From Eledone cirrhosa (taxonomy: Eukaryota), in the NCBI GenBank assembly GCA_964016885.1, contig OZ024765.1:23250001-23314000 (forward strand): a stretch of DNA of 64,000 nt. Direction: 5' to 3'. The position numbers and the translations under genes are program-made. Shown piece by piece: positions 4,916 to 63,000 of the stretch. Below the pieces are notes generated by a model. It had not been told where the DNA came from. It saw only the letters and a program-made list of their open reading frames with translations, and searched no databases. The number at the start of each line of letters is the position of its first letter. Positions within the stretch are counted from its first letter, which is position 1.

Positions 4916-5410
4916 ATGATAGTAGACGTCTTTCATATCGGCTCTTCGATTTGGAATTTTTACCTGGAATATTTGTGAGTGCATTATTTGAATTGTTTTT
5001 TATTATTGACTCTAACCCCTAGTCTGGGACTGTAGACATAGGGTAAATATATTTTCACCCCTTTTGGGGTGAAAAATATTTAATTCAGAAATGTTTATCG
5101 ATATCGTTGATAACGATATCGTCGAAAACGATATCGCCATATTGGAAGCGAACGCCACGCCTACCAAAAAAATAAGCGGGAAAGAGGGAACAACAATTCA
5201 AACTGTTGAACAGCCCCTCCTCTCCAATGAAAAAAAAAAGAATATTAATTCGAATGAAAAACTTAATTTTGAAGAAAAAAATAACACACAAATAATGAAA
5301 CCAACAACATTACAACAACAAGCAACAAAGACAACAAAATTTCTTTTGCCCAAACGGTCAGGAAAGCTATTGAATACAAGCCCATAGATATAACTAATGC
5401 TAAGCAAAAT

Positions 5411-6853
5411 TTGCTAGATGCCAGAAAATACGTATCTTTTGGGGAGGATGGTTCTTTTATGATCAACTCCCCAGAAGAAGTTCGTCAACAGGTATATAGG
5501 AATACTGTAACCTACAGGACTATAACCAACGCAACAAGAAAGCCAGCTCAATTGACAGAAAGTCAAATTGAGCTGGTTCTGAAAGACATTAAAAAGGACA
5601 TACTCTTTATTCAAAGAGGAAAGCTATATGCCAGCATTATGGTCCGAATGAAGGACGAAATGCTGGCTCAAAAATATTCGGTGGCACCTATAGTGTCACC
5701 ACAATACACCTTCTTCCCCACATATAAAGGAAGAAGAACACAAAGAATAAGAATGTGGAGCCCAACGCCAGAAGTTAACATCTGGTCCATCCTAACAGGA
5801 TTTACGGACCTAGAAAAGGACATCCTTATTTCAACAGGGGAGTCCACCAGTGGACTGTTCGGGGGGAAAAGTCTGGAGGTTCTCTTACAGATGACACCTG
5901 AGAGAATCTCCGGAATACCCGACCGAGTCCTACTGGATGTGCGAACCTTCATAAATATCACAGTGGAAGGCAGGAGACCCTCATGTTACCACTGCGCTGG
6001 CAGAGGTCACCTGAGGACGGCCTGCCCTCTACTAACAACAAAAAAACCACTGCTACAAACACCACAACAACAAAAACAACCAGCACCACCATCACAAAAA
6101 CAACAAAATACACTACCATCACCACCACAACGACAACAAAAACCAACAACACCACCACCACAACAACAACAACATCAACAACAGCTCAAGAAAACAACCC
6201 AAAACACGGTCCCACCCAGCCCCACCCGACAGAACACAAATACAAAAACACACGCAGTTCATACACAACCCGGAGATATACCCCTCCCCTCCAATACGGA
6301 AGAGGAGCTCATATCGTCGGAAGACGAGGGGGTTCCCTTCCAAAAAGTGAAAAGAAAAAAACGTACACACACCACACAAACAAAAATAACCCCACCTGAC
6401 AACACAACACAGACAACAAAACGTAAACTCACTCAAGAACAACAAGCAAAAACAAACACAACAACACAAAAACTCTACACATACATAAACAAAAACAATA
6501 AAAACCTAACTGAAAAAATAGAAAACAACCCTTCGATACAAACCGAAGGGCCGAATTTTGTAACGGCAATGGGACTCCCTAAACTGAAAATGGTGAAATT
6601 CCCACTTGACATTTTCAAAACTTTGAAAGACATTTACCCTGAGGACGTGGGCCCACCCTGCACCAGGCCACTCAACCGCGTCCTCCTGAAAGATTTTCCC
6701 CTCCCGTCCTCAAACACCCACACAACTCCAAACACCCCAACCCCTCCACACACTAATACCCCCACACCACCACAAACCACCACCCCACCCATCAACCCCT
6801 CCACCAGCCCCATGGAAACTGAGCGGCCCGAACCCCGGGACGCAGAGAGGTAA
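5411..6853 (+). CDS. LINE ORF1 (gag-like, CCHC zinc knuckle, low-complexity Q/T/P tail); true start uncertain, may include 5091-5387 via a frameshift
   Basis: CYHCAGRGHLRTAC knuckle directly upstream of ORF2. Confidence 0.8.
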   Translation: MLDARKYVSFGEDGSFMINSPEEVRQQVYRNTVTYRTITNATRKPAQLTESQIELVLKDIKKDILFIQRGKLYASIMVRMKDEMLAQKYSVAPIVSPQYTFFPTYKGRRTQRIRMWSPTPEVNIWSILTGFTDLEKDILISTGESTSGLFGGKSLEVLLQMTPERISGIPDRVLLDVRTFINITVEGRRPSCYHCAGRGHLRTACPLLTTKKPLLQTPQQQKQPAPPSQKQQNTLPSPPQRQQKPTTPPPQQQQHQQQLKKTTQNTVPPSPTRQNTNTKTHAVHTQPGDIPLPSNTEEELISSEDEGVPFQKVKRKKRTHTTQTKITPPDNTTQTTKRKLTQEQQAKTNTTTQKLYTYINKNNKNLTEKIENNPSIQTEGPNFVTAMGLPKLKMVKFPLDIFKTLKDIYPEDVGPPCTRPLNRVLLKDFPLPSSNTHTTPNTPTPPHTNTPTPPQTTTPPINPSTSPMETERPEPRDAER

Positions 6854-6876
6854 GTGCCTCTTTCTTTGCCACCAAC

Positions 6877-9800
6877 ATGGCTGTGTTAAGAGTAGGTTGT
6901 CTAAATGCGCGTGGCCTGGGCTCACCTTGGAAGCAAGCTAAACTTCTAAGTGACCTCAGGTCACAATGTATAAATGTGATGGTTATTTGAGAGGCCCCCC
7001 CGACAGCTGACCCCCACCTTTGATGACTTTGAGATGCACGCATCTCTCTGTCAGCCCGGAGGTGGGGGTGGGGTTGTCGTTCTGCTGCAAAAACATCTGG
7101 GTCTCGCTACACAGACGGTACACTTGGACCCGGAGGGTCGACTCGTGGTTCTGGACCTTGGCAATGGTGAAGGCGAAGCTTTTAGGCTTGTCGCCGTATA
7201 CGCCCCTTTTGGGGCAATGCGGTCGGACTTCTTCCATCGTCTGGAGACTTTTCTAGGGACGTCCCGCTCCTTGCTTTTAGTGGGGGACTGGAATGGTATA
7301 CTAGATGCACGTTGGGACTATGTAGGGGCATGTCCCGATAGAGGGGGGTGTAACAGCCTTAAGGGGTTAATCGGCCGATTTGACCTGGCCAATAGATACC
7401 GACTAGATTTTCTGACTGTGCCAACCTGGACTTGGTCAAATAACAGTGGTCAATCTCGATCGTACCTAGATAGGTTCTTAGTTAGAATTAAGGATAGGGA
7501 CTTTTTAAGTTGTCCAGAAATGCTCATGGTGGGCTATTCAGACCACAAGTTAGTGACCTGCGTAGTCCACCTTGATAGAACGCATAGGCAGGGGCCCGGT
7601 TACTGGAAGCTCAACTTGTCCTTACCGGCAAGTAGAGCTTACAGGGACCGGATTAGAACCTTAGTTAAGGAGCGGTTGACGGGTGCCATCGTCAACAACA
7701 GGTGGTGGGGCTCTCTAAAAAGAGAGATTAGAGTTGTTTCAATAGGAGTTAGTAAGGAGTTAGCCTCAGATAGAAATAGGAAGGAAAGGGAGTTGGTAGT
7801 TAATGTTGAAGAGGCAATGAGAAGCGGCAACGTGGCCAGAGTGCAAGCGTCGAGAACGGTCTTGAACCAGTTCTTCGACGCGAAACACGAAGGCTGCGTT
7901 GTCCAAAGCAAAATACGTGCTCTGGGATACGAGGGGACCAAAGCTGTTAGCTGGGCCCGCGTGACAGAAGCGAAAAGTGGGATTAAATCCACTATCCGGT
8001 CTTTGCGAGACCAGGATGGACGGTTGATCCTTGAACCTAAGCAAATGTGCGAGGCCTTTCAAAGGCACTTTGCCCGATTGTTTGGGAGGGGTGGGGGGCC
8101 GGTTGGGGATGTGGATTTCGGTCCATACCTCGACGGCCTGCCGTGTCTTTCGGACAAGGAGGCGAGGTCCTGCGACGGGCCGATCTCAGCTGCTGAAATA
8201 GGGGACGTGCTGAGCCTATGCGGCAAACGCAAATCTCCAGGGCTCGATGGTCTGCCCTACGAACTATATATTAATATGCCGGACTTGTTCCCCGATCTCC
8301 TCGAGGTGGTCTACTGCAACTGGCAACAGAACGGGAGAATTCCCTGTTCTGTGACCAAGGGCGTAGTCACGCTAGTGAGGAAGGACGAGAACAAGGGGGA
8401 TGACATTAGTAATTTTAGGCCCATAACTCTGCTAAATGCAGAGTTAAAGATTTTGGCCAAGGTGTTAGCGAAGAGGTTGGCGCTTGTCGTGGGGGGCCTG
8501 GTGGGAGATGCGCAGACATGCGCTATCCCGTCCAGGTCCATCCACGACAACCTCCACCTCATGCGATACATCATAGAGAGGGTTGGGAACGAACCCGGCT
8601 TTGGTGGGGCCCTGATAAATTTAGATCAGTCTAAAGCATTCGATAGGGTGGACCATGGTTACCTGGATGCGGTGCTAGCGGCGGCTGGGTTCGGACCCGT
8701 TTTCAGGGGCTGGATCACTGCCATGCGCAGCAGCCGCATCTGCTCTAGAGTCAAGGTGAACGGCTACCTTTCGGAGCTATTCGAAATCACCCGCTCCATC
8801 CGACAGGGGTGCCCTCTCTCCTCCCTTCTGTATGTGTTGACTCTCGAGCCACTACTGCGGAAGTTGGAGTTGTTGCAGGGCATCCCTTTGGAACCGGGAT
8901 TGCGCAAAGCGGTGTCGGCCTACGCCGATGACGTAACAGTAATGGTGTCGACCACCTCGGAAATCGAGGCAATCGGCACCTTACTGGAGGAGTACGAAAG
9001 GTTGACAGGGGCTAAGCTGAACCGGGACAAGTCGGTCGCTTTGCAACTCGGCGAGTGGAGGGGCAAAACGATGTTGTCCGACGGTATCGTCGGACGGTGG
9101 ACGGCGGGCCCGGTGAAGTTGCTTGGGGTCTGGTTTGGACCGGACCTCCAGGTGGAGAAAAACTGGGGTGAGGTGACGAATAGGGTGTTTGCACTGACCC
9201 AGAAGTGGGCCGAGTGCAAACTATCCCTGAAAGGTCGGGCGGAGGTGGCGAACGCTTACATAGCATTCGTCATCTATTACCGCTTGACTGTCGTGCCTTG
9301 CCCGGGTGAGATCCTCGCCAAAATGGAGCGCGCCCTCTTTTATTTCCTTTGGAAGAAGAGGTCTCCTCTGGTGAGGAGATCCATCTGCTGTCAACACCCT
9401 TTGAAAGGAGGGCTGGGGATGCCATGGCTAAAAATGCGTAAACACGCATTGAGGCTAAGGCACCTCCAGGTATTCCTCACTGGTCAACCGGTGTGGGCCC
9501 CGTTTGTGAGGAGAGCCTTCCCGAGGCTCGTCTCGCTCACCGAGCTGCAGTCCTGGGTGAAGCAAAGACCGAGAAAACTGGGCGACTGGCACACCGAGTA
9601 TGCCCAGGCGCTCACGGCTCTCTGGCAGGCGGACCCGGCTATCGACGGAGACTCCACCTCGTCATTCTATAGAGGGCTGGTGGTTAGCGGGTGCGACGAT
9701 GCCCTCGGAGAAACCCTAGGCATGGAGGAGGACGAACTGGCCAGCCTATTCGGTAGGACTTTCGGCCCGGGACCTATGGACAACTTCCAGAAGTCCTTGG

Positions 9801-10303
9801 CCTGGCAGTGCTACCGAGGGGCTCTGCCCATTCGGGATAAGCTCTACAGACACGGGCGCCCGGGTAGGGACCCCTCGAAAAAGATCTGTCCCAGATGCGT
9901 GCACGACGAGGAAACCGTCGCGCACGCATTGGTGCACTGCCCGGGCGTTGCCGATCTGTGGGGCTATGTCGAACAACTGCTGTCACGGGTGGGACCAATT
10001 AGGTTGACCACCGAGTCCATTGTAACGATCAAGCCGCCTCCCCCCTTCAAAAATGAAGGAGAGGCGGTCTTCCTCTGTGTAATAGCCATGGTAAAAGAGG
10101 TTATATGGTGGACGCGTCTGAAAGGGCTGAGGTCGGACACCTTTCTCTCCGGCCAACAACTGGTCCTTTTCTTCCGATACCATTTCAGAAGAAGGATCAG
10201 GATGGAGAGAGAGGTGCTCCACTCCAGCCAGTTTTATGAAAGGTGGGTGAAAGTTGCGAGAATGGCCCGTGTGAATGGGCCTTCTCTCTACCTCAGCCTG
10301 TAG
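6877..10303 (+). pseudogene. LINE ORF2 (APE endonuclease + RT + zinc finger), disrupted near the N-terminus
   Basis: ATG 6877 MAVLRVGCLNARGL; TGA at 6988-6990 and frameshift into the 7034-10303 frame (VYAP, GDWN, YLDRF, SDH, YADD). Confidence 0.88.
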
Positions 10304-24902: not shown

Positions 24903-25279
24903 CCCTCTTCCTGCTATATCAAGTGTTAACCTAATATATCCCTTCCATATACTGTACTGATTGTGTTGTTATTTCTGTTTAACTTTTACATACACACATA
25001 TATATATATATAAACGGAAAAAATGAAACAAAATTTCATTTCCCACTCTTAGTACGGCTGTTACTTAAATATATGTATGTATACGTATATACATATATGT
25101 ATACAGACGTACAATAGTATGTATATATATATATATACATGCACATATATATATATATGTACGTATGGATTCAGCGAACATTTATTATAATGCTCGGTGT
25201 GTTTGTAAACAAACATCCCGTATGAAGCCGTAGTGTCCAGAAACCATCGTTGCTCGTTTGTTCAACACTGACAAAGGAA

Positions 25280-25320
25280 CGCTGTACTAGTTTCAAGCTT
25301 ATTAGCTATCGTCAGCAACT
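25280..25320 (-). ncRNA. Minimal type I hammerhead ribozyme
   Basis: Reverse complement: GTTG-CTGACGA-tAGCTaataAGCTt-GAAA-CTA-GTA-CAGC. Confidence 0.85.
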
Positions 25321-25767
25321 TATACCTTCCTGCCAGATGGTTGAACATCTGAAAGTATATACTTTCCTTATGCATATTAACGGCTGAGCAGCCTAATTTG
25401 CATATTGAGTGAGTTAATCGGCCCCGGGGTACCGAAAATCATAAACGCAAAAAATGAAACAAAATTTCATTTCTCACTCTTTGTACGGCTGTTACTTAAA
25501 TATAAGTATGTATACGTATATACATATATGTATACAAACGTACAGTAGTATGTATATATATATATATATATATATATACATGCACACATATATATATATG
25601 TACGTATGGATTCACCAAACATTTATTATAATGCTCGGTGTGTTTGTAAACAAACATCCCGCATGAAGCCGTACAGTGTCTAGCAACCATCGTTGCTCAT
25701 TTGTTCAACACTGACAAAGGAACGCTGTACTAGTTTCAAGCTTATTAGCTATCGTCAGGAAGGTATA

Positions 25768-25808
25768 CGTTGCTGACGATCGCTAATAAGCTTGAAACTA
25801 GTACAGCG
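25768..25808 (+). ncRNA. Minimal type I hammerhead ribozyme
   Basis: CGTTG-CTGACGA-tcGCTaataAGCtt-GAAA-CTA-GTA-CAGCG. Confidence 0.85.
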
Positions 25809-25952
25809 TTCCTTTGTCAGTGTTGAACAAACGAGCAACGATGGTTGCTAGACACTACGGCTTACTTCGGGATGTTTGTTTACAAACACACCGAGCATTA
25901 TAATAAATGTTCGGTGAATCCTTACGTACATATATATATGTGTGTGTGCATG

Positions 25953-25996
<44 letters not shown>

Positions 25997-26046
25997 CTAC
26001 TGTACATCTGTATACATATATGTATGTACGTATACATACTTATATT

Positions 26047-26082
<36 letters not shown>

Positions 26083-35864: not shown

Positions 35865-38800
35865 CATCATCATCATTATCATTTTACGTCCGCTTTTCCC
35901 TGCTTGCAAGGGTGGGACGGGTCCTATTCAGTACAGCATCTCTCCACTTGTCACGGTCCTTCGTCATCTCCACTGTGAGCTTCAGCGATCTGAGGTCTGT
36001 TCTCACCCCGGCCGCCCATGATTTTCGTGGTCTACCTCTACCACGTCTTCCTTCAACTGGCAATTCCTGGCACTTCTTCACCCATCGGTCATCCTCCATG
36101 CACATCACATGTCCATACCACCGCAGTGTCCTCTCTCGCACACTACATTCTATCTCTCTCAGACACAGTTTCTCTCTCAACACATCACATGTCCATACCA
36201 TCTCAGTCTCCTCTCCCACACTCTACAACTTATCCCTCTCAGACACCTTTTCTCTCTCAACTCATCACATGTCCATACCATCTCAGTCTTGTCTCCCACA
36301 TTACAACTTATCCCTCTTATACACAGTTTCTCTCTCAACTCATCACATGTCCATACCACCTCAGTCTCCTCTCCCGCACACTACATTCTATCCAACTCAG
36401 ACACAGTTTCTCTCTCAACACATTCATGCTGGGTCGTTCACGCACATTGACACTGCACATCCAATGGAGCATGCTTGCCTCATTTCTCTCCAGCCATCAC
36501 ATATCCTCTGCAGTTGTTGCCCATGTCTCACTACCATGCAGCATTGTGCTCCTCACACAGGCATCTTACAACCAGCCTTTCGTACGCAGGGAGAAACCCT
36601 TCTTTGTCAGCAGAGGAAGCAGCTCCCTAAACTTCTTCTAACCCGTCCTTATTCTAGATACTATGCCCCCCCCCCCCCCTCCCCCATGATAATCTGATCT
36701 CCTAGGTACCGGAAGCTATCCACCACTTCTATAGCACCTTTCTGCATTTGAAAAATGTGTCTATCAATGCGACTTCTACTTTCTAATTTCCCTGTACATC
36801 TGCTGCATACATATTTCTCCCTACCTGTTAGTTTGCCTGCTAACCCGCTACATCTCTTGTGTACCCAGTATCTGCATTGTGCATTTTATAGAATTTATGC
36901 CAGTTCCTTTTCTGCATATCGAACATGGCCATTTCCCTGACGGAATCAGGGTTTTGTCCTCTTTTCTACTCATCAACACTTTTGTCTTAGCTAGGTTCAC
37001 TCTAGGTCCTCTTGCTTCCAACTGCTGTTTCCAGAGCCAGAATTTATTCTCTAGCTCCTCTACTGATTCTGCTATAAGAACCAGATCATCAGCATAGAGA
37101 AGTTCCCATGGATAGCCAGTCTTAAACTCCTCTGTTATGGCTTGGAGGACTATAATGAACAAGAGCGGGCTGAGGACTGAACCTTGATGTACTCCTACTT
37201 GTATCTGGAATTCCTCACTAAACTCCATTCCTACCCTGACTTTACTGACAATACCTCTGTACAAAGTTTGCACTGTCCTCACAAGCCATTCCTCAACACC
37301 TAGTTTCCTTAGGGACCACCAGATAACAGATCGGGGTACCCTATCAAAGGCCTTCTCTAGGTCAACAAAGGCTAAGTATAGTGGCTTATTTTTCTCTAAG
37401 AACCTCTCTTGCAATTGTCTCACCAAGAAGAGGGCATCTGTTGTACTCTTCCCAGGCACAAAACCAAACTGCATCTCATCTAGTTTGATCCTTTCTCTAA
37501 TTAGTTGTGCTAATATCCTTTCTGCCACTTTCATAACCTGATCCATCAGTTTTATACCCCTATAATTGCTCCTCTCCAGTGCATCCCCTTTACCTTTGTA
37601 GCAATTTATGAGAATAGTGCTGCACCAGTCTTTGGGTATGACACCACCATATATAGCCTGATTGATGATGCGTGCAACCAGTTTAGTGCCTACGTCCCCT
37701 GATGCCTTCAGCATCTCAGCAACTATTCCCGATGGTCCAGCAGCCTTACCATTTTTCATTTCCTTAATTGTCTCTTGGACCCTATATTCGTCAATCTCAA
37801 TAGCTGGTCCCTCTGCCGGATCTACTGAGGGTAATTTCTCTCTCTCCCATTCGTTCTCCACATTCATCAGTCTCTCATAATGTCTTTTCCAGGCCTCCTT
37901 TTTCTGATCATTCGTGACACTAAGTACACCGGCATCGTTCCGGACACATTTATCTCCAACAACATCCTGATTTGCATTGACACACTGCCTTGCAATGTTG
38001 AACACCGCACGCCTCTGATCTTCCCGTCGCAGAACATTGGCAAACCTCCTACTCTCAGCCTCCCTGCCTGCTAAGTACACTTGATGTCTAGCTTCTCTCT
38101 TAGCGGCTGTACATTCTTCCCTACTCCCACCCTTTTTCCAAGCCTTCCATGCTAGTATTTTGTCTCTAATGGCCTTATCTTCTGTGCTGTTCCACCACCA
38201 GGTCACTCTCTGTCTGGTTGGACCTATGCTCCAGCCACAAGTTTCAACAGTAGCCTGCAGTAAGTTGTCACGTAAGAAATTCCAGTTATTATCTATGTCA
38301 TACCTCTCTAAATCGTCTTCTTTTTCATCATACACATCTTGAAGGGCTTTCCTAAATTTGTATTTTAGTGAAAGGTCTTTTAGCTTCCAGACCTTTCTTC
38401 TCCACACCTTCCTGTATGTCTCATTCCTTCTCTTGCTTACTGAGATATCACTAACGACTAACCTATGCTGTGGGGTACATTCTTCCCCAGGGTATGCCTT
38501 GGTATTAGACACTATCTGCCTGTCCCACTGCCTAACTAGTAAGAAGTCAATATGGCTTATGTGCTTGCCAGATTTGTAGGTTATTAGGTGGTTGGCAGGT
38601 TTCTGGAAGTTTGTGTTGCAAATAGTCGGTGTACTTGCATCACAAAATTCAAGAAGTCTCACTCCTTCTTCATTTCTTGAGCCGTAACCGTGCCCACCAT
38701 GTACCCCAGTGGTTTTTTGAAGTCCCCTGCTAGCATAACGATTTCTCCGTCCTCTGTCATTGCAGTTGTTTGTAAAAGTTGCTCGTAAAAGCAGTCTTTC

Positions 38801-39300
38801 TCATCTTTGCCTAGGCCGAGATGATTGTCAGTAGTCTCCTACCTACAACTAATCTAAGCTCATTCTATTACTAACTCGAACTACCTCTATTGTCTTATTG
38901 ATCCATCTCTCAGCCAGGAAAATGCCTACTCCCCCTAACCCATCATCCTTACCTACCCAGAATAGCTTATAGCTAAGACGCTTGCCTACGACTAGTCTCG
39001 CAGAGGCACCTCTCCATCTCACATCTTGCACGCAGCACAGATCCACCTGCCTTCTCTCCAGCATCTCCGCTATTTCAGCAGATTACCTCTGAGAGTGCCA
39101 ACATTAAGTGTTGCAACTCTGAGATGCGACATCTTCATATTTTGTTGTTGTTCCTATTTGTTGCTGTGCTGATAAGCGTTTTGGCATTGATACACTGGTT
39201 GGATGCCCTTCCTAACACCAGCGCCACTTTACAGCATGGACTGGGTGCTTTTATTTGTGCCACCAGCACTAGAGAGGATGTCTTACTAGACTCAAGGGCC
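35865..39300 (-). mobile_element. RTE-clade LINE, near full length, degraded
   Basis: APE (TLNVGTL, LCCVQDVRW), RT, C-terminal LRWYGHV..GRPRK, (GAT)n tail. Confidence 0.92.
36848..38662 (-). pseudogene. RTE ORF fragment: end of APE domain + RT
   Basis: KAAGPSG, NYRGIKL, QFGF, DLEKAFDRV, VHQGSVLSP, YADD; frameshifts on both sides. Confidence 0.9.
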
Positions 39301-39842
39301 CTCTCTACCCCTCCATTTTAGAGCATGGTCATTAAAAAAAAAAAACAAAAAAAGAAACAATTATTGACACGACACACAATCACACACCAACACTCATGCA
39401 TACAAACTACAAACACACAGCAACACTCACGCATACAAACACACACACCACTCACATACATACATACATATATTACCGGCAGTACTGATACAAAATCAAA
39501 ATCATGTCAACTGTTGACTTTTCCCATATCTATATATATATATAGATAAGTCTACCAAAATATACGGTAGTGTCCAATCCGTATGAAGAACTCAATGTAA
39601 TCCAAATATAGAAGATATCATGAAAAGAGAAGATACATTCAAAAATTTACGATAAAAATCATAGGAAAACTGAGTCAAGATAAATTAATAAAAACAATGA
39701 AATAAACACAAAGAACAAGTTCTTTATGTTATAAAATTCATCATTTTACGATCGTTTCTGGGATGTATATGTGCGTTGGTATGTATATCATATAGATCTA
39801 TGTTTTACATAGATCTATATGATATTAAAAATTTTTTTTTAG

Positions 39843-40530
39843 GGCGGCATGTATATGTGAAGGTATGTGGCCGGTGCTCTGGTGCAATAAATAGCAGCAA
39901 GTGCCCACAGAACACTAGCTCATTCCATTGCACAGATGGTTCTATAGAAATAGTGGACACCTTCCGTTACTTGGGTGACAAATTCAGCAGTGGGGGAGGG
40001 TGCTCTGAAAGTACAGTAGCTAGAGTCAGAACGGGATGGAAAAAGTTCAGAGAGCTTATACCACTATTGGCCGCTAAAGGGTTCTCTCTAAAAATGAAAG
40101 GCAGGCTGTATGATGCCTGCATACGAACAGCAATGCTGCATGACAGTGAAACCTGGGCATTGTGTGCAGAGGATATACGCAGACTGGAGAGGAACGAAGC
40201 TTGCATGCTCCGCTGGATGTGTAATAGTAATATACGTGAACGGCAAAGCATAAACGAACTAAGGGAGAAATTAGGAATAAGAGGGATCAGATGCTGTTTA
40301 CTCGAGAGAAGACTACGTTGGTACGGTCACGTGATGCGCATGAAGGACGATAGCTGTATAAAAAAGTGCAGGGCGATAAAAATAGACGGTAGCCACGGAG
40401 TAGGCAGACCCAGAAAAACCTGGGACGACTTGATAAATTCCGACCTCACACACACCTCTCCAAGACAATGTCACTGGACCAAGATCTTTGGCGGTACTCA
40501 GTAATAGAGAAGACCCGCCTTACCTAAGTA
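39843..40530 (+). mobile_element. 5'-truncated RTE LINE of a second family
   Basis: FRYLG, SETW, RRLRWYGHV, GRPRKTW. Confidence 0.88.
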
Positions 40531-42738: not shown

Positions 42739-43119
42739 CGTTTTTGTATGTGTGTTTGTATTTCTGTGGTTGGGGGGTTTTTTTGTGTGCGTGTGTGTAT
42801 GTATATATTTTTGTGTGTGTGTGTATATGTATAATTGTATTAGGGTGTATGTATGTGCATCATTATGTATAGGGATTTGATGAATATTTTCATTGATCTT
42901 TTGCTCCATGAACTTGTTGAGTGCTCTAGGTCTGCTATGGGCATTTATACCCTTTTCTAAATATATATATATAATGAATGGGTCTACTCCACCCCCTCAC
43001 CCTTTTTCTCCTACCGGCAGGTTTAGCTACTCCTTCCCCCACCAACTTGCCATCACAGATTTACTACTAACTTGTGATGTGACCAATCCTGGTGATTATC
43101 TCTGACCATATATGGAATT

Positions 43120-43213
43120 ACCCCTTGATAAGTTTGGCTATTTAAATACCAGAATAAATTTTCATTCAGTACAGAATTAGCCGTCGAAACGGCTTGAGCT
43201 CAGCCGTCGGGGT
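43120..43213 (+). ncRNA. Type I hammerhead ribozyme, U3-A8 variant, pLTR1
   Basis: ACCCC-TTGATAA-G..TGGCTA/TAGCCGTC-GAAA-CGGCT/AGCC-GTC-GGGGT. Confidence 0.75.
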
Positions 43214-43398
43214 CTTACTTATTCCTATTACCCACTCTACTACCCTAAGTATTGAGTACTTTGGTGCGTTATGGTCCACCTGGTTCCTTACCACATTTCC
43301 TTCGTTATCTAGCTCCTATCCCCGTAGTAGAGCACTTTCCGACCCTACCACACCGTATCCAGACTTTTCCACTAAGCTCAATTTCTTTCAACCGCACC

Positions 43399-45578
43399 AT
43401 GCGAAAACACAATATCGACTTCTCTACCAAGAACATCCCAATCCCACCGAAAAAACTTTACCTTCGGATGCTCACGCAAAAAATCGATCTATTTGCGAAA
43501 AGACTTAGATGGAGAACTTTTTTCTACGACAGATTCTGCGACAATCAGGACTTCGGTACCAAGGAGAGATTCGGATTTATTACCTACAAATATCCCCCCC
43601 TCCCCCGAACCCTTTGCTCTCACCCTTCGAGAATGACCTCTTCCAACTGGTCAAGAACCTTAAATTCAAACCCAGACACAACCGATTCCTACAAAAACTC
43701 CGTAGCAATTTAACAGAGTATGATAACACCAATGACATCATGGTGCATTCGGATAAAACTGGGAACCTATATTTTGTCAACCCCGACAGATACCACACAC
43801 TGATCAGGAGCAGCCTAAACTCCACCTATAAAAAGGCTAACCACTCATGCATCGGGGACATTAATCGAGATGGACAACAAATTACCTCCAGCCTCGGGGT
43901 CGCCGACCGCACCGAACCCCTAGACCCACGGACACCCTACTTCACACTGAAGGACCACAAATCCGATTTCGACCGTAAACCATCTATCAGGCTTATAAAC
44001 CCAACGAAGTCCGACATAGGGTGAATCAGCAAAAAAATCCTAGACCGCGTGATACCAAAAGTCAAGCAACACGCCCGACTTAGCCTATGGATCAACACCC
44101 AGGAAGTTATCTCATGGTTCAGCAATTTGGAGGATAAACGAGACACTAAATTTATCCAGTTCGACATAGAGAGCTACTATGCTTCAATCACATTACCGCT
44201 ACTTACTGCCGCCTTGGACTTCGCCGAAGCATTTGTGCCCATCACCGACCAGGAAAGAAAAATCATCCTCCACGCCAGGAAGACAGTCTTACTCTTTGAC
44301 AACTCCAAATGGATAAAAAGAGCTCCTGATTCACCCTGCGACGTCAGCATGGGCGCTACGGATTCGGCGGAGGTCACAGATCTTATAGGATTATTCCTTA
44401 TAGCCAAACTCACCGATATGTTTCCTGCTTTCGGTGGTGGATTGTACCGTGATGATGGGCTCCTTACCCTTAAAGGGTACAACCCCAGTAGTACAGACCA
44501 GGTCCGTAAACAATTAATCAGCTTCTTCCGCGACTGGGGATTTAAAATAACCCTACAAACGTCCCTGACCCGAGTTAATTTCCTGGACGTGACCCTCGAT
44601 CTCAATAATGACCTGTACTACCCATACAGGAAACCCAATGACAACCTGCACTACATCCACCGCCGATCTAACCATCCTAGGAACATCACCAACAACCTGG
44701 TCAAAAACATCTCCCTCCGTATATCCCGTTTGTCAGCTAATGAGAAGATATTCGATGAACATGCGCCTTACTACAACCAGGCCCTCAAGCGGAGTGGTTT
44801 CCGGGAGGAAATATCCTACTGTCCAGCTCCCATTAGCGGAACCAGCAGGCGACACCGCCGCTCACGCAATGTAACATGGTTCAATCCTCCCCACAACGCC
44901 GAGGTGACAACTCCCATCGGGAAAATTTTCTTTAGGCTCATTGAAAAACACTTCCCACCACAACACCGCTACCACAACATAATTAACAAAAATACCATCA
45001 AACTCTCTTACAGCACTACACCTAACTTCGCACAAAACATCGTCTCCTCCAACAACAAAAAACTCAACCCCGATGGAAGAAACAACCTAAATAGCAGTGG
45101 AGAGCCGACCAGGAGGTGCAACTGTCCTGATAGATCCAGTTTCCCCCTCGACAACAGATGCAGAGACCGTAATGTGATCTACCAGTGCAACGTGAGCACG
45201 GACACCTCCAACAAAGCTTATATAGGATTAACCGCATGCGACTTCAAGACCCAGCTATACCAACAGAGACATACCTTCCGAAACCCGGCCCGGCGTCACG
45301 CCACTACACTTTCGGGCCACATATGGGACCTCAAGGACAACAACATCAACTATGATCTCACTTGGAAATTACTGTCCAGAGCCAACTCTTACACGGGAGG
45401 ACGCCGTCCGTGCAATTTATGCTCGGAGGAAACATTACAAATGCTGTGTTCGACGGACCAACTCCTAAACAAGAAAGGTGAACTGGTTACTGCATGTAAA
45501 CACCGATTACGTAGGACTTACCTCGCCCTCAAACCCCATAATGACCCCGGGGGGGGGGGGGGTAAACTAGGGCTATAA
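43399..45578 (+). pseudogene. Penelope RT + GIY-YIG ORF copy 1 (frameshift in C-run ~43600, in-frame TGA 44022)
   Basis: DKT, QFDIESYY, SMG, YRDDGL, FLDV, WFNPP, CNC..C, NVIY..YIG, CNLC, CKH. Confidence 0.9.
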
Positions 45579-46339
45579 CACCCCACTTGCCTATTTTGTA
45601 ATGGGTAACCCCTGCTTGCCAATGGAGACGTAAGATCTTCTTTTACATTCTTTTATCGCTTCCTCTATATTTCCTCCTCCCCCCATCCCTCCCTAGTCCT
45701 TCTACCCCAGTTCCTTTTTTTTGTCGTTTTCTTTGTCGTCGTCTTTTTCTTGCCCACCCGAGGTAGCCCATCGGTCCCTTGTAGCTCCAGCACCCCCACC
45801 CCCTCCCCTATTCTATGATAGATTTGGCTGACTCCGCTTTTTATAGCAGAGGTGTTAGACTTCGGATACTCGCCCCCTTCTCCGACCGCTGTCCCTTTTT
45901 TCCGTGCCTTCTATATTTCTTAGTGGCATCTTTGCTTTAATTTCTCGTTTATCCAGTATTTCTTTCTCCTTTTTCCCCTTTTTTGGGGGGGAGGGGGGAT
46001 GTTCCTGTATTAATTTTCCGTTCTTTATTTTTACTTCGTACGATCTTTCATGTAGCTTGTATAAGACTTTCTGTTTCGTGGCGGAACCCTTAGAGTTAGC
46101 ACTAGTATTTTTTTGCGGGACCCTGAATTATATTCTCGTACTAGTTTACTTTCTTGCACCGGGTGGTTGCTGGCCCTGTGATTGGGGTAGAAACCTTTAT
46201 TATTTCGTGGTAGTCTCTTTAGTACTCTGCCCCCACCTTTGTTGACCCGTCACCGTACGATACACGCACTTATGCCTCGTATAAGGGTCCCTTTATTTCC
46301 ATCCCACCTAGTTTATTTCTATTATTATTATTTATTTTT

Positions 46340-46403
46340 ATATAAATAAAGTACCAGTAATGTACTGGGTAATTGCTGGCCTTGTGCCTAAAGTAGAAAC
46401 AAT
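46340..46403 (+). mobile_element. Short SINE-A tail insertion with TSD, present only in Penelope unit 1
   Basis: Absent at the equivalent site ~50010-50030; flanked by duplicated ttattattatttattttt. Confidence 0.8.
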
Positions 46404-46841
46404 TATTATTATTTATTTTTTTATTCTACATTATATATATATATATTTTTTTTTAAAATTTATTTATCTATTCTTTTATTCACTTATTTGTTTATTTATT
46501 TATTTATGTATTTCTTTAGCCTAGCAATAGCGAGAGACTTAAGTTCTAGTAACCAGACTTTGCTTATTTATTTTTTTTCTCTCTCAGTTCCTTTTAGTTT
46601 TACCCTCATTGTTCTACTTACCGTTTCGACCTCCTCCCCCTCCCCAGTATCCTCTTTGACCTCACACCCAGCTGTAGCTGGCACTACCAACGCATGAATA
46701 GGTCTACTCCACCCCCTCTCCCTTTTTCTCCTACCGGCAGATTTAGCTACCCCTTCCCCCACCAACTTGCCATCACAGATTTACTACTAACTTGTGATGT
46801 GACCAATCCTGGTGATTATCTCTTTGACCTTATATGGAATT

Positions 46842-46935
46842 ACCCCTTGATAAGTTTGGCTATTTAAATACCAGAGTAAATTTTCATTCAGTACAGAATT
46901 AGCCGTCGAAACGGCTTGAGCTCAGCCGTCGGGGT
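46842..46935 (+). ncRNA. Type I hammerhead ribozyme, U3-A8 variant, pLTR2
   Basis: Same motif as pLTR1. Confidence 0.75.
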
Positions 46936-47120
46936 CTTACTTGTTCCTATTACCCACTCTACTACCCTAAGTATTGAGTACTTTGGTGCGTTATGGTCCA
47001 CCTGGTTCCTTACCACATTTCCTTCGTTATCTAGCTCCTATCCCCGTAGTAGAGCACTTTCCGACCCTACCACGCCGTATCCAGACTTTTCCGCTAAGCT
47101 CAATTTCTTTCACCCGCACC

Positions 47121-49281
47121 ATGCGAAAACACAATATCAACTTCTCTACCAAGAACATCCCAATCCCACCGAAAAAACTTTACCTTCGGATGCTCACGCA
47201 ACAAATTGATCTATTTGCGAAAAGACTTAGATGGAGAACTTTTTTCTACGACAGATTCTGCGACAATCAGGACTTCGGTATCAAGGAGAGATTCGGATTT
47301 ATTACCTACAAATTTCCCCCCCCCGAACCCTTTGCTCTAAACCTTCGAGAATGACCTCTTCCAACTGGTCAAGAACCTTAAATTCAAACCCAGACACAAC
47401 CGATTCCTACAAAAACTCCGTAGCAACTTAACAGAGTATGATAACACCAATGACATCATGGTGCATTCGGATAAAACTGGGAACCTATATTTTGTCAACC
47501 CCGACAGATACCTCACACTGATCAGGAGCAGCCTAAACTCCACCTATAAAAAGGCTAACCACTCATGCATCGAGGACATTAATCGAGATGGACAACAAAT
47601 TACCTCCAGCCTCGGGGTCGCCGACCGCACCGAACCCCTAGACCCACGAACACCCTACTTCACACTGAAGGACCACAAATCCGATTTCGACCGTAAACCA
47701 TCTATCAGGCTTATAAACCCAACGAAGTCCGACATAGGGTGAATCAGCAAAAAAATCCTAGACCGCGTGATACCAAAAGTCAAGCAACACACCCGACTTA
47801 GCCTATGGATCAACACCCAGGAAGTTATCTCATGGTTCAGCAATTTGGAGGATAAACGAGACACTAAATTTATCCAGTTCGACATAGAGAGCTACTATGC
47901 TTCAATCACATTACCGCTACTTACTGCCGCCTTGGACTTCGCCGAAGCATTTGTGCCCATCACCGACCAGGAAAGAAAAATCATCCTCCACGCCAGGAAG
48001 ACAGTCTTACTCTTTGACAACTCCAAATGGATAAAAAGAGCTCCTGATTCACCCTGCGACGTCAGCATGGGCGCTACGGATTCGGCGGAGGTCACAGATC
48101 TTATAGGATTATTCCTTATAGCCAAACTCACCGATATGTTTCCTGCTTTCGGTGGTGGATTGTACCGTGATGATGGGCTCCTTACCCTTAAAGGGTACAA
48201 CCCCAGTAGTACAGATCGGGTCCGTAAACAATTAATCAGCTTCTTCCGCGACTGGGGATTTAAAATACAAACGTCCCTGACCCGAGTTAATTTCCTGGAC
48301 GTTACCCTCGATCTCAATAATGACCTGTACTACCCATACAGGAAACCCAATGACAACCTGCACTACATCCACCGCCGATCTAACCATCCTAGGAACATCA
48401 CCAACAACCTGGTCAAAAACATCTCCCTCCGTATATCCCGTTTGTCAGCTAATGAGAAGATATTCGATGAACATGCGCCTTACTACAACCAGGCCCTCAA
48501 GCGGAGTGGTTTCCGGGAGGAAATATCCTACTGTCCAGCTCCCATTAGCGGAACCAGCAGGCGACACCGCCGCTCACGCAATGTAACATGGTTCAATCCT
48601 CCCCACAACGCCGAGGTGACAACTCCCATCGGGAAAATTTTCTTTAGGCTCATTGAAAAACACTTCCCACCACACCGCTACCACAACATAATTAACAAAA
48701 ATACCATCAAACTCTCTTACAGCACTACACCTAACTTCGCACAAAACATCGTCTCCTCCAACAACAAAAAACTCAACCCCGATGGAAGAAACAACCTAAA
48801 TAGCAGTGGAGAGCCGACCAGGAGGTGTAACTGTCCTGATAGATCCAGTTGCCCCCTCGACAACAGATGCAGAGACCGTAATGTGATCTACCAGTGCAAC
48901 GTGAGCACGGACACCTCCAACAAAGCTTATATAGGATTAACCGCATGCGACTTCAAGACCCGGCTATACCAACAGAGACATACCTTCCGAAACCCGGCCC
49001 GGCGTCACGCCACTACACTTTCGGGCCACATATGGGACCTCAAGGACAACAACATCAACTATGATCTCACTTGGAAATTACTGTCCAGAGCCAACTCTTA
49101 CACGGGAGGACGCCGTCCGTGCAATTTATGCTCGGAGGAAACATTACAAATGCTGTGTTCGACGGACCAACTCCTAAACAAGAAAGATGAACTGGTTACT
49201 GCATGTAAACACCGATTACGTAGGACTTACCTCGCCCTCAAACCCCAGAATGACCCCGGGGGGGAGGGGGGGGGGGGGTAA
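47121..49281 (+). pseudogene. Penelope RT + GIY-YIG ORF copy 2 (indels ~47315-47345, in-frame TGA 47740)
   Basis: Near-identical to copy 1. Confidence 0.9.
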
Positions 49282-50432
49282 ACACCCCACTTGCCTATTT
49301 TGTATTGGGTAACCCCTGCTTGCCAATGGAGACGTAAGATCTTCTTTTACATTCTTTTATCGCTTCCTCTATATTTCCTCCTCCCCCCATCCCTCCCTAG
49401 TCCTTCTACCCCAGTTCCTTTTTTTTGTCGTTTTCTTTGTCGTCGTCTTTTTCTTGCCCACCCGAGGTAGCCCATCGGTCCCTTGTAGCTCCAGCACCCC
49501 CACCCCCTCCCCTATTCTATGATAGATTTGGCTGACTCCGCTTTTTATAGCAGAGGTGTTAGACTTCGGATACTCGCCCCCTTCTCCGACCGCTGTCCCT
49601 TTTTTCCGTGCCTTCTATATTTCTTAGTGGCATCTTTGCTTTAATTTCTCGTTTATCCAGTATTTCTTTCTCCTTTTTCCCCTTTTTTGGGGGGGAGGGG
49701 GGGTGTTCCTGTATTAATTTTCCGTTCTTTATTTTTACTTCGTACGATCTTTCATGTAGCTTGTTTCGTGGCGGTAACCTTAGAGTTAGCACTAGTATTT
49801 TTTTGCGGGACCCTGAATTATATTCTCGTACTAGTTTACTTTCTTGCACCGGGTGGTTGCTGGCCCTGTGATTGGGGTAGAAACCTTTATTATTTCGTGG
49901 TAGTCTCTTTAGTACTCTGACCCCCCTTTGTTGACCCGTCACCGTACGATACACGCACTTATGCCTCGTATAAGGGTCCCTTTATTTCCGTCCCACCTAG
50001 TTTATTTCTATTATTATTATTTATTTTTTTATTCTACATTATATATATATATATATTTTTTTTAAAAATTTATTTATCTATTCTTTTATTCACTTATTTG
50101 TTTATTTATTTATTTATGTATTTCTTTAGCCTAGCAATAGCGAGAGACTTAAGTCCTAGTAACCAGACTTTGCTTATTTATTTTTTTTCTCTCTCAGTAC
50201 CTTTTAGTTTTACCCTCATTGTTCTACTTACCGTTTCGACCTCCTCCCCCTCCCCTTCACACCCAGCTGTAGCTGGCACTACCAATGCATGAATGGGTCT
50301 ACTCCACCCCCTCTCCCTTTTTCTCCTGCAGGTTTAGCTACACCTTCCCCCACCAACTTGCCATCACAGATTTACTACTAACTTGTGATGTGACCAATCC
50401 TGGTGATTATCTCTTTGACCATATATGGAATT

Positions 50433-50526
50433 ACCCCTTGATAAGTTCGGCTATTTAAATACCAGAATAAATTTTCATTCAGTACAGAATTAGCCGTCGA
50501 AACGGCTTGAGCTCAGCCGTCGGGGT
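50433..50526 (+). ncRNA. Type I hammerhead ribozyme, U3-A8 variant, pLTR3
   Basis: Same motif; stem II U-G pair is C-G here. Confidence 0.75.
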
Positions 50527-50536
50527 CTTACTTGTT

Positions 50537-50577
<41 letters not shown>

Positions 50578-50790
50578 ATATTTTAGTTAAATAAGGTTCA
50601 TATGAATTATCTAAGAATGAGTTTTACACACATATATATATGCACCGAAACGAAATTTTGTTTCAATTTTTCCGTTTATCGTTTTCGGTGCACCCGGCCG
50701 ATTAACCCACTCGATATGCAAATTGGGCTACTCAGCCGTTAATATGCATAAGGTAAGTATATACATTCAACAATCTGGTAGGAAGGTATA

Positions 50791-50831
50791 CGTTGCTGAT
50801 GATAGCTAATAAGCTTGAAACTAGTACAGCG
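50791..50831 (+). ncRNA. Minimal type I hammerhead ribozyme, canonical core
   Basis: CGTTG-CTGATGA-tAGCTaataAGCTt-GAAA-CTA-GTA-CAGCG. Confidence 0.88.
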
Positions 50832-51212
50832 TTCCTTTGTCAGTGTTGAACAAACGAGCAACGATGGTTGCTAGACACTACGGCTTAATACGGGATGTTT
50901 GTTTACAAACACACCGAGCATTATAATAAATGTTCGCTGAATCCATACGTACATATATATATGTGTGTGCATGTATGTATATATATATACATACTACTGT
51001 ACGTCTGTATACATATATGTATGTACGTGTACATAATTATATTTAAGTAACAGCCGTTCTAAGAGTGGGAAATGAAATTTAGTTTCATTTTTTCCATTTA
51101 TCGTTTTCGGTGCACCCGGCCGATTAACCCACTCAATATGCAAATTGGGCTACTCAGCCGTTAATATGCATAAGGTAAGTATATACGTTCAACAATCTGG
51201 CAGGAAGGTATA

Positions 51213-51253
51213 CGTTGCTGACCATATCTAATAAGCTTGAAACTAGTACAGCG
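51213..51253 (+). ncRNA. Minimal hammerhead, mutated core (CTGACCA)
   Basis: Same scaffold with G8>C and a stem II mismatch. Confidence 0.7.
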
Positions 51254-51521
51254 TTCCTTTGTCAGTGTTGAACAAACGAGCAACGGTGGTTGCTAGACAC
51301 TACGGCTTAATACGGGATGTTTGTTTACAAACACACCGAGCATTATAATAAATGTTCGGTGAATCCATACGTACATATATATGTGTGCGTGTATGTATAT
51401 ATATATATACATACTACTGTACGTCTGTATACAAATATGTATGTACGTGTACATACTTATATTTAAGTAACAGCCGTACTAAGAGTGGGAAATGAAATTT
51501 AGTTTCATTTTTTTCCATTTA

Positions 51522-51990
51522 TATATATATATATAGATATATGTTAATATATATATATACATATATGTTTATATATATACATATATGTTTATATATATAT
51601 ATATACATATGTTTATATATATATATATATACATATGTTTATATATATATATATATACATATGTTTATATATATATATGTTTATATATATATATATGTTT
51701 ATATATATATATGTTTATATATATATATATATATATATGTTTATATATATATATGTTTATATATATATATATATATATATGTTTATATATATATATATAT
51801 ATGTTTATATATATATATATGTTTATATATATATATATATGTTTATATATATATATATATATGTTTATATATATATATATATATATGTTTATATATATAT
51901 ATATATGTTTATATATATATATATGTTTATATATATATGTTTATATATATATATATGTTTATATATATATATATGTTTATATATATATAA
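51522..51990. repeat. (TA)n/TATGTT microsatellite
   Basis: Direct inspection. Confidence 0.96.
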
Positions 51991-52040
51991 ATAGATAGAT
52001 AAATATACATGGGTGTGTATGATTGTGTATAGAAGATTAT

Positions 52041-52626
52041 ATTAATAAGAGGAATTCCAACTTTGTCTGATTTACTCGTTTTATTTACAATCCTTTAAAA
52101 TTTATAATGGTATTATAATTGTTTCTAATTTAGGCACAAGGCCAGCAAATACCCAGTGCATTACTGGTACTTTATTTTATCGACCTCGTAAGGATGAAAG
52201 GTAAAGTCAACCTCGGCGGGATTTGAACTCAGATCGTAAAGGGACTTAACTATGCTGGAAAGCATTGTGTCCGACCCTCTACCGATACTGCCAATCCACC
52301 ACCATAATGGTATTATAATGAAATAGTATGATAGAATATTAAATGTTAAGTGTTAATTGAACAAGTACTTTCATGCTTTCGCAATCTTCAGGTTCATAAT
52401 ATGTGGTGACAGTAAAGTTTGCAATTTTCAACTGTTGAAAATTGCAAACTTGACTGTCACCACATATTATGAACCTGAAGATTGCGACAGCATGAAAGTA
52501 CTTGTTCAATTAACACTTAACATTTAATATTCTATCATACTATTTCATTATAATACCATTATAAATTTTAAAGGATTGTAAATAAAACGAGTAAATCAGA
52601 CAAAGTTGGAATTCCTCTTATTAATA
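52041..52626. repeat. Foldback palindrome (~190-bp arms, centre ~52433) with SINE inserted in left arm
   Basis: 52304-52431 mirrors 52434-52563; 52041-52119 mirrors 52548-52626. Confidence 0.9.
52120..52303 (-). mobile_element. Full-length SINE-A with 16-bp TSD
   Basis: ATAATGGTATTATAAT at 52104-52119 and 52304-52319. Confidence 0.9.
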
Positions 52627-60059: not shown

Positions 60060-63000
60060 GTATGGGGGAAAGGGGGGTTTGGAGAAGGGGATCATATTAA
60101 ATATATGTTTCAAGAAACAGAATATTTTCCGTATCTTGATCCAATGTATGTTTTTACATAGTTTCAGTGTTAGGAAATACAACAAACAAGAACTAAGGCA
60201 AAATCTATGCATCTCAAAATAAACAAGTATACCATTAACTATATGTTAACTAAACCAAAGATAGTTAACATATTGATTTCTAAGGTGTGAATTAGTTAGG
60301 TTTATAATATTTGAAGCAGAATTTTAAAGTTAAATAGTAGTAGAGTATTGATTATAGTATAACTAAATTAAAGTTAATAACGTTATGGTATCAATATTAG
60401 GAAATGAATTTAGTAATAGGGAAAAAAACAAATAAAATAAAGTATTACATCGGTAGTAGAATATAAATTATAGGTTAACTAAATTAAAAATTATATATTT
60501 ATTTCTATAGTATATGTTAATTAGGTATATAATACATAAAACAGATATTGTATTTTATCAATAGCATAATATAATTATATGCAAATAGACATCAAAATTA
60601 ATACACATACATATACATATACATACACATACATATATACATATACATATATATACACATACATATATACATATATATACACATATATATATATATATAC
60701 ACATATACACATATACATACACACACACATACACATACACATATACATATACATATCTTTTTCAAAAAATTGCATAGAATATATTAACTAGGTATATATC
60801 CAAAACACATCTCATTCTATGATTACATGACTTTCTGCAATTCGTCTGTATAAGGATACTAATTTTAAGCAAATTAAAATTAAATTTTTAGGTTGATTAA
60901 AATTAAAACCAAATTATAAATATATTTCTAAAATGTATATTAATTAGGTCTATAATACTAAAAATTATTTCTCTGTCATTGGATACACGATAATATTTTG
61001 TTATAATTTATCTGTAAAAGAATTATAATAAAAGGTTTAAATAAATTAAAATTAATCTATAAATTAAATTACTAAGTATATATTAGTAATATTTAAAGGT
61101 TTTTCACAATTTATGATTACATAATATTTTATATTCTCATCTGTAATAAAATTTTAATTAAATTAAATTTATAGGTTAAATAACATTTAAATTAAATTAA
61201 TTTCTAAAATAATGTTATTAATTAGGTTTATAATATTTAAATGTTTTTTTTAGTTTATGATTACACGATATAATTAATTCCTGTCGTTTATTTAATAAGA
61301 TATCCTTAGACTTCATTATTTCAAATAGTTCTTGGGAACATAATCTACATTCATTTCTATTATTTTGATAAGGGGTGGCTCTTTTGAGCATACTCCAGGT
61401 CAAAACATATTCTATATTCTTATTTTTATAACTATTGATTTTTTCTGCTAGAGATGTTGTATTAGCCAGTGCGGCATTTTTAAAACTATGCTTGTGGGTA
61501 TTAAACCTTGTCTTAAAATTGTTAGAGGTAGCTCCTATATATGAGCAAATAGAATCTTTAGTTTTAACATTACATTTATAGACTATGTTGTTAACAAGAC
61601 AATTCCCTTTTAATGGGCAGTTTGCTTTGTTTCTACAGTTACATCCTTTCGTTAATTCTGTATTTGAGGAGATATTATGGTTAATTTGATGTACTGGTGG
61701 TATACTTATGGTTTTCTTACATTTATATGCATTATAGGCACTTATATTTTGTTTTATGTTATTTGTTGTAGAGTATGAGAATTTAACTGTAGACCTATTT
61801 AAGATTTGATGGTATTTGTGGTTTGGCGGGAAGTTTTTCTCAAGGATATAAAAAAATTTTTTAGCAATATTATCCTTAACTTGTAAATTAAAAGGAGCAT
61901 TATACCAAGTAACCCGTCTATTACGGTTTCTATGTTGTTTATTATTTTTATTATTTTTATAGGTTGTATCGTGATTTTTACTAGGAGGATTAATGTTAAT
62001 GATCTCACCACAACTATTTTTAGTTATATTTGTAGATTTAGGTGTTTTATCCTTTTTATTAGGAGCTTTATTATTAATATTTATTAGAGTTGTATGATGA
62101 GTAGTTTTTTGAGAGTTACTATACTTTATATTAGAAGATTTGGTATTTTGGGGTATAGTGTGGGTGGCATTTAGGTGTGTACTTTTCATTTGGTGTTTGT
62201 TGGTAATATTATGTTGTATGCTTTCAGTATTTTTAGTAGAAGGTATATACTCTAATCTATTTTTGTGGCCACTTCTATCTAGAGCTTCGTTATAGAAGGT
62301 CGCATTTTTATCAAATACATCTTGGTTAGAAGAAAGGTTAGAAATTCTAAGTGATATATTATATGCAAGGTTTTTAAGGATAGATTTAGGGTGATTAGAT
62401 TGTGAGTGTATGTAATGTAAGTTTTGGTTAGGTTTATGGTAAGGTTGGTAGATACCCGTAGCTAAATCTAAAGTTATATCTAGGAAATTTACTACTTTAC
62501 TTGTTTTTTCAAAAGTAATATTAAGATTATAATAGTCTTTAAGGAAAGTTCTAATATGTTTTTTGTTTTTTTCAATTTCTGAAAGGCTAAGGTTGTTAGA
62601 AAGAAGAAGACAGTCATCACGATATAAACCACCTTTAAGGTGGGGAAAAGAGGCATTTATGTTGAAAAGGAGAAAGAGGCCCACAAGATCAGTAATTTGG
62701 GCGGAATCGCTTGAACCCATAGTAATATCAAAAGGATTACTATATGTGTTTCTGGTCCAGTATTCATTCTGAAATTCAATAAGTGTTAGTCTAGCATGTG
62801 TAATAATATTAATGTCATCCAAAGTTAAGTTAGATCTATTTTTAGCAAATATCAATGCTTTGTTCAGGAGTATAGGTGATATAGAAGAATAGTAATTATC
62901 TATATCAAATTGTAGGAATTATAGGAATTGTAGGAATTAATTATCAAATTGTAGGAATTAATTATATCGTGTAATCATAAACTAAAAAAAACATTTAAAT

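Follow-up and report, generated by a model that had tools for sequence, protein, structure and literature searches.

Two direct copies of a 422-bp repeat, each with a hammerhead ribozyme motif, stand against a TA-rich microsatellite in the window, i.e., the stretch of 64,000 nucleotides of Eledone cirrhosa DNA analysed here. They raise the question of what kind of element the repeat represents, which enzymes spread it and from what RNA it is copied. The reading that best explains the data, to which we give a probability of roughly 0.6, is a non-LTR retrozyme with Penelope-type ends, for which a Penelope-like RT/endonuclease likely used a single monomer-length RNA, probably circular, as template. 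A circular-RNA copying route has already been proposed for such repeats; the family described here makes it testable by providing junction-level evidence for mobilisation by Penelope-like elements (PLEs) and for one monomer template per insertion. The features of the window are collected in Table 1.

Table 1. Features of the two insertions and of the neighbouring Penelope-like element (positions in the window)
Feature	Position	Strand	Remarks
Unit 1	50647..51068	+	422 bp, non-coding; ruler for numbering, position 1 = 50647
Unit 2	51069..51488	+	95% identical to unit 1; hammerhead core mutated
3' end of insertion	51489..51521	+	at the tail site
Inverted unit fragment at 5' junction	50641..50653	-	short; approximately unit positions 33-46, one base missing; read by eye
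Candidate U6-type promoter	50716..50764	+	octamer ATGCAAAT at 50716-50723 and TATA-like GTATATAC at 50757-50764; motif level
Hammerhead of unit 1	50775..50843	+	type I, intact; extended stem I with internal loop; predicted cut after 50826
Hammerhead of unit 2	51197..51265	+	core CUGACCA, stem II broken; palindrome and GUA site intact (cut position after 51248)
TA-rich hairpin	50945..51035	+	long, of variable length, within the unit
Tail	51046..51101	+	56 nt, bounded by the two fixed 3' ends: the short site (after 51045) and the tail site (51101)
TA-rich microsatellite	51520..52007	.	insertion target
Second insertion, first arm	25011..25774	-	1.8 units, ending at the tail site in (TA)n
Second insertion, inverted arm	25757..26048	+	ending at the short site in (TA)n
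PLE-A, Penelope-like element	42974..50540	+	two tandem broken copies, Hydra-clade motifs; separate insertion

The preliminary description of this DNA, made from its letters alone, had reported two direct, non-coding 422-bp units with hammerheads, and this holds: the units, followed by 33 bp of the next, are 95.4% identical and differ at 13 of the 315 scored columns, although the second hammerhead is broken. The unit has a GC content of 0.37, and its longest stop-free frame, found in a young 2.6-unit copy, amounts to 53 codons. As an insertion, the locus (50647-51521) consists of one arm, 2.08 units long, whose end is of the tail type; it is an old, decayed copy of a hammerhead-bearing tandem non-coding repeat. 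Because just one hammerhead core is intact, it could not release a monomer by itself, and the dead core makes the locus a clean test of single versus double hammerhead cleavage. The recurrence of the family near position 25012 was likewise found, as two inverted arms spanning 25011-26048. The claim that this second insertion has the same 3' breakpoint stands for the arm that matches the 51521 site but not for the other, which ends 56 nt upstream; with one short-site arm and one tail-site arm, the insertion obeys the genome-wide rule described below. The 56-nt tail itself contains a small hairpin.

In unit 1, stem I (ACGUUG/CAGCGU) would pair 50790-50795 with 50827-50832 around the core CUGAUGA (50796-50802) and the GAAA at 50817-50820, while stem II (50804-50815) has 4 bp, is closed by U.U and carries an AAUA loop. 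Stem III is the palindrome ACUAGU, and the cut is predicted after a GUA triplet. Unit 2 has lost G8 of the core. A covariance-model search gave a divided answer: the Rfam model HH9 aligned over its full length at 50778-50849 with an E-value of 0.00066 on 161 nt, but its score of 23.3 bits lies below the gathering score of 52. Nothing in the whole window reaches a gathering score, and miRNA matches at the E-value level were discarded as TA-hairpin noise. Taken by itself, the 81-nt hammerhead region does not fold more stably than shuffled versions (z -0.78). In view of the sub-gathering score and of this fold result, the motif was tested comparatively. Across ten hammerhead variants from three lineages, 95.7% of cells pair, compared with 32-48% in slid controls, and 8 of the 21 pairs change on both sides; since the ten rows are related, the shuffle counts for this covariation are not probabilities. 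Deviations from the majority affect 10 of 1,678 cells in the core and 1,066 of 39,074 outside it, in loci chosen for a good core. Covariation and core conservation thus argue for the hammerhead fold. The motif had been called minimal, but its stem I is extended and contains an internal loop, and its 4-bp stem II is complete, with a tetraloop, unlike the minimal PLE type with its reduced helices and lack of a loop 1/loop 2 frame; the hammerhead is of the canonical type, its helix III being weak. When monomers are folded as circles, all six examined pair strongly with themselves (z -6 to -10, against 40 shuffles each), in part owing to the TA-rich hairpin.

A 37-nt core of the unit has 5,747 matches with at most one mismatch in the 3.0-Gb genome and none for the reversed control, so that the motif is not a chance occurrence. 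Two related lineages were found in the flanks of these main-family loci: a subfamily approximately 85% identical over aligned columns, with 12,600 core matches, and a very young sister lineage of 466 bp, approximately 70% identical and collinear over the whole monomer, with 5,430. In the loci read, all three lineages are tandem and non-coding. The copies are short, from dimers to multimers, and are dispersed over many chromosomes, and those sampled run into (TA)n. Loci were selected for an intact core, and approximately 108 of the main family were read out of thousands. The longest arrays belong to the sister lineage rather than to the 422-bp family: L166, L171/L172 and L168 (G000 C1 at 30.83, 56.39 and 38.76 Mb) are very young two-armed arrays of 466-468-bp units, each with its own period and variants, and the two largest hold approximately 20 units or more. 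Related sequence also occurs in one contig of organism B and five contigs of organism C.

The ends of the insertions follow a strict pattern. Of the 149 arms in the first 89 loci of the main family, 116 stop at unit position 399 or 455 (equivalent to 33 of the next unit) and pass into (TA)n; 88 of the 149 are longer than one unit, without an ORF. The 5' ends in main-family loci are scattered, i.e., the copies are variably 5'-truncated. Many insertions consist of two arms head to head, with an overlap of a few bases at the join. Over the three lineages, 116 inverted junctions were found, and 42 of them have at least one end that is cut or unscorable. Among the 74 scorable insertions, 71 pair one short-site end with one tail-site end (31/32 in the main family, 30/31 in the sister lineage and 10/11 in the subfamily); three are short with short and none tail with tail. 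The tails measure 56, 59 and 74 nt. Apparent starts of the sister lineage at position 1 proved to be alignment artefacts in three of four cases checked, and the fourth is an extra inversion.

Insertions of PLEs have been reported to bear a tail at one end (PMC8557442), and a PLE RT was found to start at two internal sites that define the tail (PMC11167929); both reports leave the role of the hammerhead and of the tail in PLEs open. The present family shares with these endonuclease-bearing (EN+) PLEs the 5' truncation, the inverted copy, the (TA)n target and the one-end tail, as well as two presumable RT start sites, namely the two fixed 3' ends that flank the tail (PMC8557442; PMC11167929). 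The short-plus-tail pairing is the Penelope tail footprint, and the ends match the Penelope type. On the other hand, the unit has no ORF, and its tail of 56-74 nt exceeds the 30-40 bp given for those elements; moreover, the available in vitro account describes no strand difference in start site (PMC11167929), whereas the pairing here is nearly absolute. Taken with the abundance of the family and its two fixed 3' ends, the 71 of 74 pairings support the proposal of a non-coding tandem hammerhead family mobilised in the Penelope manner.

What RNA was copied can be approached through the variants within insertions. Mismatch at diagnostic sites is 7% within arms and 10% between arms, as opposed to 33% between loci, and rare alleles are shared at 16% and 13% versus 0.6%. 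In L166, of the sister lineage, 18 of 18 monomers are identical across both arms and carry their own variants and period; in L126, the units diverge in a star-like manner. By sequence comparison, all units of an insertion thus descend from one monomer sequence, and it is likely that one monomer RNA, probably a circle, was copied repeatedly per insertion. As internal priming needs no RNA 3' end, it would be compatible with a circular template. By contrast, 5' ends show no pile-up at the cut site (4 of 178 within positions 176-187, with approximately 5 expected), which makes a cut linear monomer copied once unlikely; this candidate template was rejected. No indel occurs at the cut site in any of the 480 matched junctions. 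The single-monomer signal is not proof of a covalent circle, since a young array of homogeneous units would, when transcribed, yield the same pattern.

The type of variant adds a further hint. On the sense strand, of the 24 variants that occur in a single insertion and in every one of its units, 9 are A>G and none is T>C, an excess that rests on few events, partly clustered in few loci; the variants of L166 include three clustered A>G changes. Unit-private variants, conversely, are symmetric (A>G 33/340, T>C 41/340). This count leaves out microsatellite columns, as well as ten units of the main family and three of the subfamily that were too short or too strongly diverged. The idea was formed on the first sister-lineage batch; in data fetched afterwards the excess was 7/19 versus 12/146 (p 0.002), although it is weak in some batches (0/1 in one sister batch, 2/8 in subfamily 2 and 1/4 in the main family). 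A-to-I editing of a repeatedly copied, structured RNA may be the simplest reading, for which the excess offers modest evidence.

In the proposed mechanism, tandem loci would be transcribed, the hammerheads would cut the transcript, probably as dimers via the ACUAGU palindrome, and the cut monomer would be ligated. A Penelope protein would then nick both strands of (TA)n and prime at the two sites flanking the tail; each cDNA would extend around the template to a varying extent, and microhomology would join both cDNAs head to head. A fuller version, in which a Penelope RT dimer performs double rolling-circle copying of one A-to-I-edited RNA circle, priming both nicked (TA)n strands and using each tail site once, remains tentative, at a little short of even odds. 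If true, retrozyme insertions would constitute a genomic record of circular-RNA retrotransposition and reveal the origin of the Penelope tail.

The same retrozyme and Penelope machinery might instead copy the uncut, linear multimeric transcript of a tandem source locus, with circles and monomers as a hammerhead side product and with long arrays growing by later DNA-level duplication. Uncut RNA was the main substrate in PMC11167929, where hammerhead cleavage was dispensable for insertion, and long arrays are present as possible sources. Variant patterns of period 4 in L031, period 2 in L173 and period 3 in one arm of L171 also call for DNA duplication or multimeric templates in some arrays. Such a template nevertheless fits poorly with insertion-private variants and periods common to every unit of both arms, and the sense-strand A>G bias requires a change at the RNA level that is fixed in all units; the star-like divergence in L126, too, suggests birth at full length. 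We consider this alternative unlikely, though by no means negligible, and prefer copying from one monomer-length RNA.

Two further explanations concern the unit itself. It had been set down as a condition against the retrozyme reading that the unit might be only the pseudo-LTR (pLTR) of a coding Penelope element elsewhere, the copies being its 5'-truncated insertions. The ends, inversions and TA targets are of the PLE kind, an RT/GIY-YIG fragment is joined directly to a unit in L040, a preprint relates retrozymes to pLTRs (10.64898/2026.07.22.740005), and the main-family loci read are a small part of the thousands present. Yet the tail continues straight into the next unit, more than half of the arms run beyond one unit without an ORF, and the three collinear lineages are all tandem and non-coding. 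In L040 the join lies in the middle of the endonuclease, and the element concerned carries a different hammerhead in a pLTR of its own; the loose ends at contigs share no common alternative continuation among the matches listed. In none of the 108 main-family loci does an ORF continue into the unit by way of its own 3' UTR, and tblastn on 90 loci detected ORF fragments nearby but none with the unit as its pLTR. The condition thus found no support, and this explanation is improbable, while a remote descent of the unit from a pLTR is possible. The other explanation, an ordinary satellite that spread through DNA recombination and whose hammerhead-like motif is vestigial, would agree with the tandem layout, the sub-threshold Rfam score, the unremarkable fold of the isolated motif and the local amplification by unequal crossover proposed in the 2026 preprint (10.64898/2026.07.22.740005). 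It does not account for dispersed short copies on many chromosomes with fixed 3' ends, variable 5' truncation and two arms, nor for hammerhead covariation and strand-biased A>G; largely refuted by the end statistics, it is highly improbable.

Which Penelope element could supply the enzyme is a separate matter. One had been noted about 100 bp away, and PLE-A indeed ends 106 bp from the first unit. It has the motifs RWR, DKT and CNCPDRSSC, and its RWK-like and DKT motifs, CxCX5C linker, C-terminal GIY-YIG, TA target and hammerhead correspond to those given for the Hydra clade (PMC8557442); judged by these motifs, it is probably a Hydra-type Penelope. Its protein has no Pfam or PDB match. The type I hammerhead of PLE-A (50433-50526, also present in pLTRs ending near 43228 and 46950) combines a long stem II and a stable stem III with a U3-A8 core, which reads UUGAUAA here and UUGAGAA in other copies; the motif has 50,140 matches in the genome. 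An in-frame stop is common to both tandem copies (44022-44024 and 47740-47742) and absent from the first 100 genomic matches listed, so that both copies come from one mutated monomer; a selenocysteine reading of this TGA was rejected, the codon being a sense codon in 100 of those 100 matches. As PLE-A shares no DNA similarity with the unit and differs in its hammerhead and in its 83-nt tail, it was dismissed as the parent, and the suggestion of the adjacent element as the specific partner finds no support on the same grounds. Six of 108 loci have a PLE-A pLTR no more than 150 bp away, and its motif was seen 22 times versus 8.9 expected, a mild enrichment that shared TA targeting can explain.

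In five loci (L005, L020, L032, L040 and L043), the 5' end of a retrozyme arm abuts an inverted end or an ORF piece from another family, five families in all; this may reflect promiscuous co-packaging or serial insertion into TA tracts. These junctions name no partner, because the family differs each time and the insertions are possibly serial. No coding parent of the unit was found among the loci read. The window also holds an intact-looking LINE (5285-10303; ORF1 and EN/RT/zf-RVT), a broken LINE (36848-40504) and a second PLE family (61218-62918) approximately 45% identical to PLE-A. As the genome also offers sister copies of very recent origin and PLE families that look intact, rolling-circle target-primed reverse transcription is open to direct testing.

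Metazoan non-LTR retrozymes were defined in coral, mussel and axolotl, with circles and dimer cleavage demonstrated in animals other than the present one; an unknown RT was suggested to use the circles as templates, and PLEs were named as candidate mobilisers (PMC7229834). The present family shares with them the non-coding tandem unit, a GC content of approximately 37%, one type I hammerhead per unit, thousands of copies and a self-paired monomer. Further resemblances are the U.U at the base of helix II in axolotl HHR_Amex2 and the weak palindromic helix III of HHR_Amex1 (PMC7229834). By these features, it appears to be a further member of this known class. Its units (422-540 bp) are at or above the top of the size range reported there, the RNA was shown there whereas the family here is known from genome sequence, and two-armed insertions with two fixed ends are a feature of the present family compared with the retrozymes of that report. 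Vertebrate retrozymes, likewise, co-occur with PLEs and have been proposed to use PLE enzymes (10.64898/2026.07.22.740005). The preprint links them to pLTRs by distribution and similarity and invokes unequal crossover for tandems, whereas the argument here relies on insertion junctions and has no parent pLTR. Since one of nine elements tested there cleaved, hammerhead activity in the present family is to be judged cautiously. Non-autonomous Chlamys elements such as MRC1 are also non-coding, PLE-dependent and inserted as multiple head-to-tail copies, but they are described as mostly devoid of hammerheads and have a 3' end like that of the autonomous partner (PMC8557442). A literature search that covered few subscription papers returned no cephalopod retrozymes and no tail-type ends in retrozymes.

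Newt satellite 2 offers another comparison, having a dimer-type hammerhead in a tandem unit (PMC7229834) and an snRNA-type promoter cited in PMC2220036; a possible internal promoter of this type in the present unit is a lead at the motif level. The octamer of the unit resembles the -77 element of three U6 loci. Upstream of the U6 genes (L216-L219), TATGC(A/T)AAT lies at about -77 and TATA at -31, and the spacing between octamer and TATA is 40-41 nt in the unit versus 45-47 nt in U6. The octamer is absent from the U2 promoters examined. Most shuffle tests gave no significance, and 288 kb of flanking sequence contains the motif 10 times.

Many other hammerhead-like families with a palindromic stem III occupy the same TA tracts, both in the flanks of L032-L090 and in the window (20739, 24870, 27387 and 52391/52475), some with the variant cores CAGAAGA and UUGAAAA. 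At 52010-52625, a 300-bp inverted pair has a hammerhead-like motif in each arm and is interrupted by a SINE-like insert. In L049 (1-1300), an unrelated 312-bp tandem hammerhead unit with an ACGCGU palindrome likewise shows the two-armed layout.
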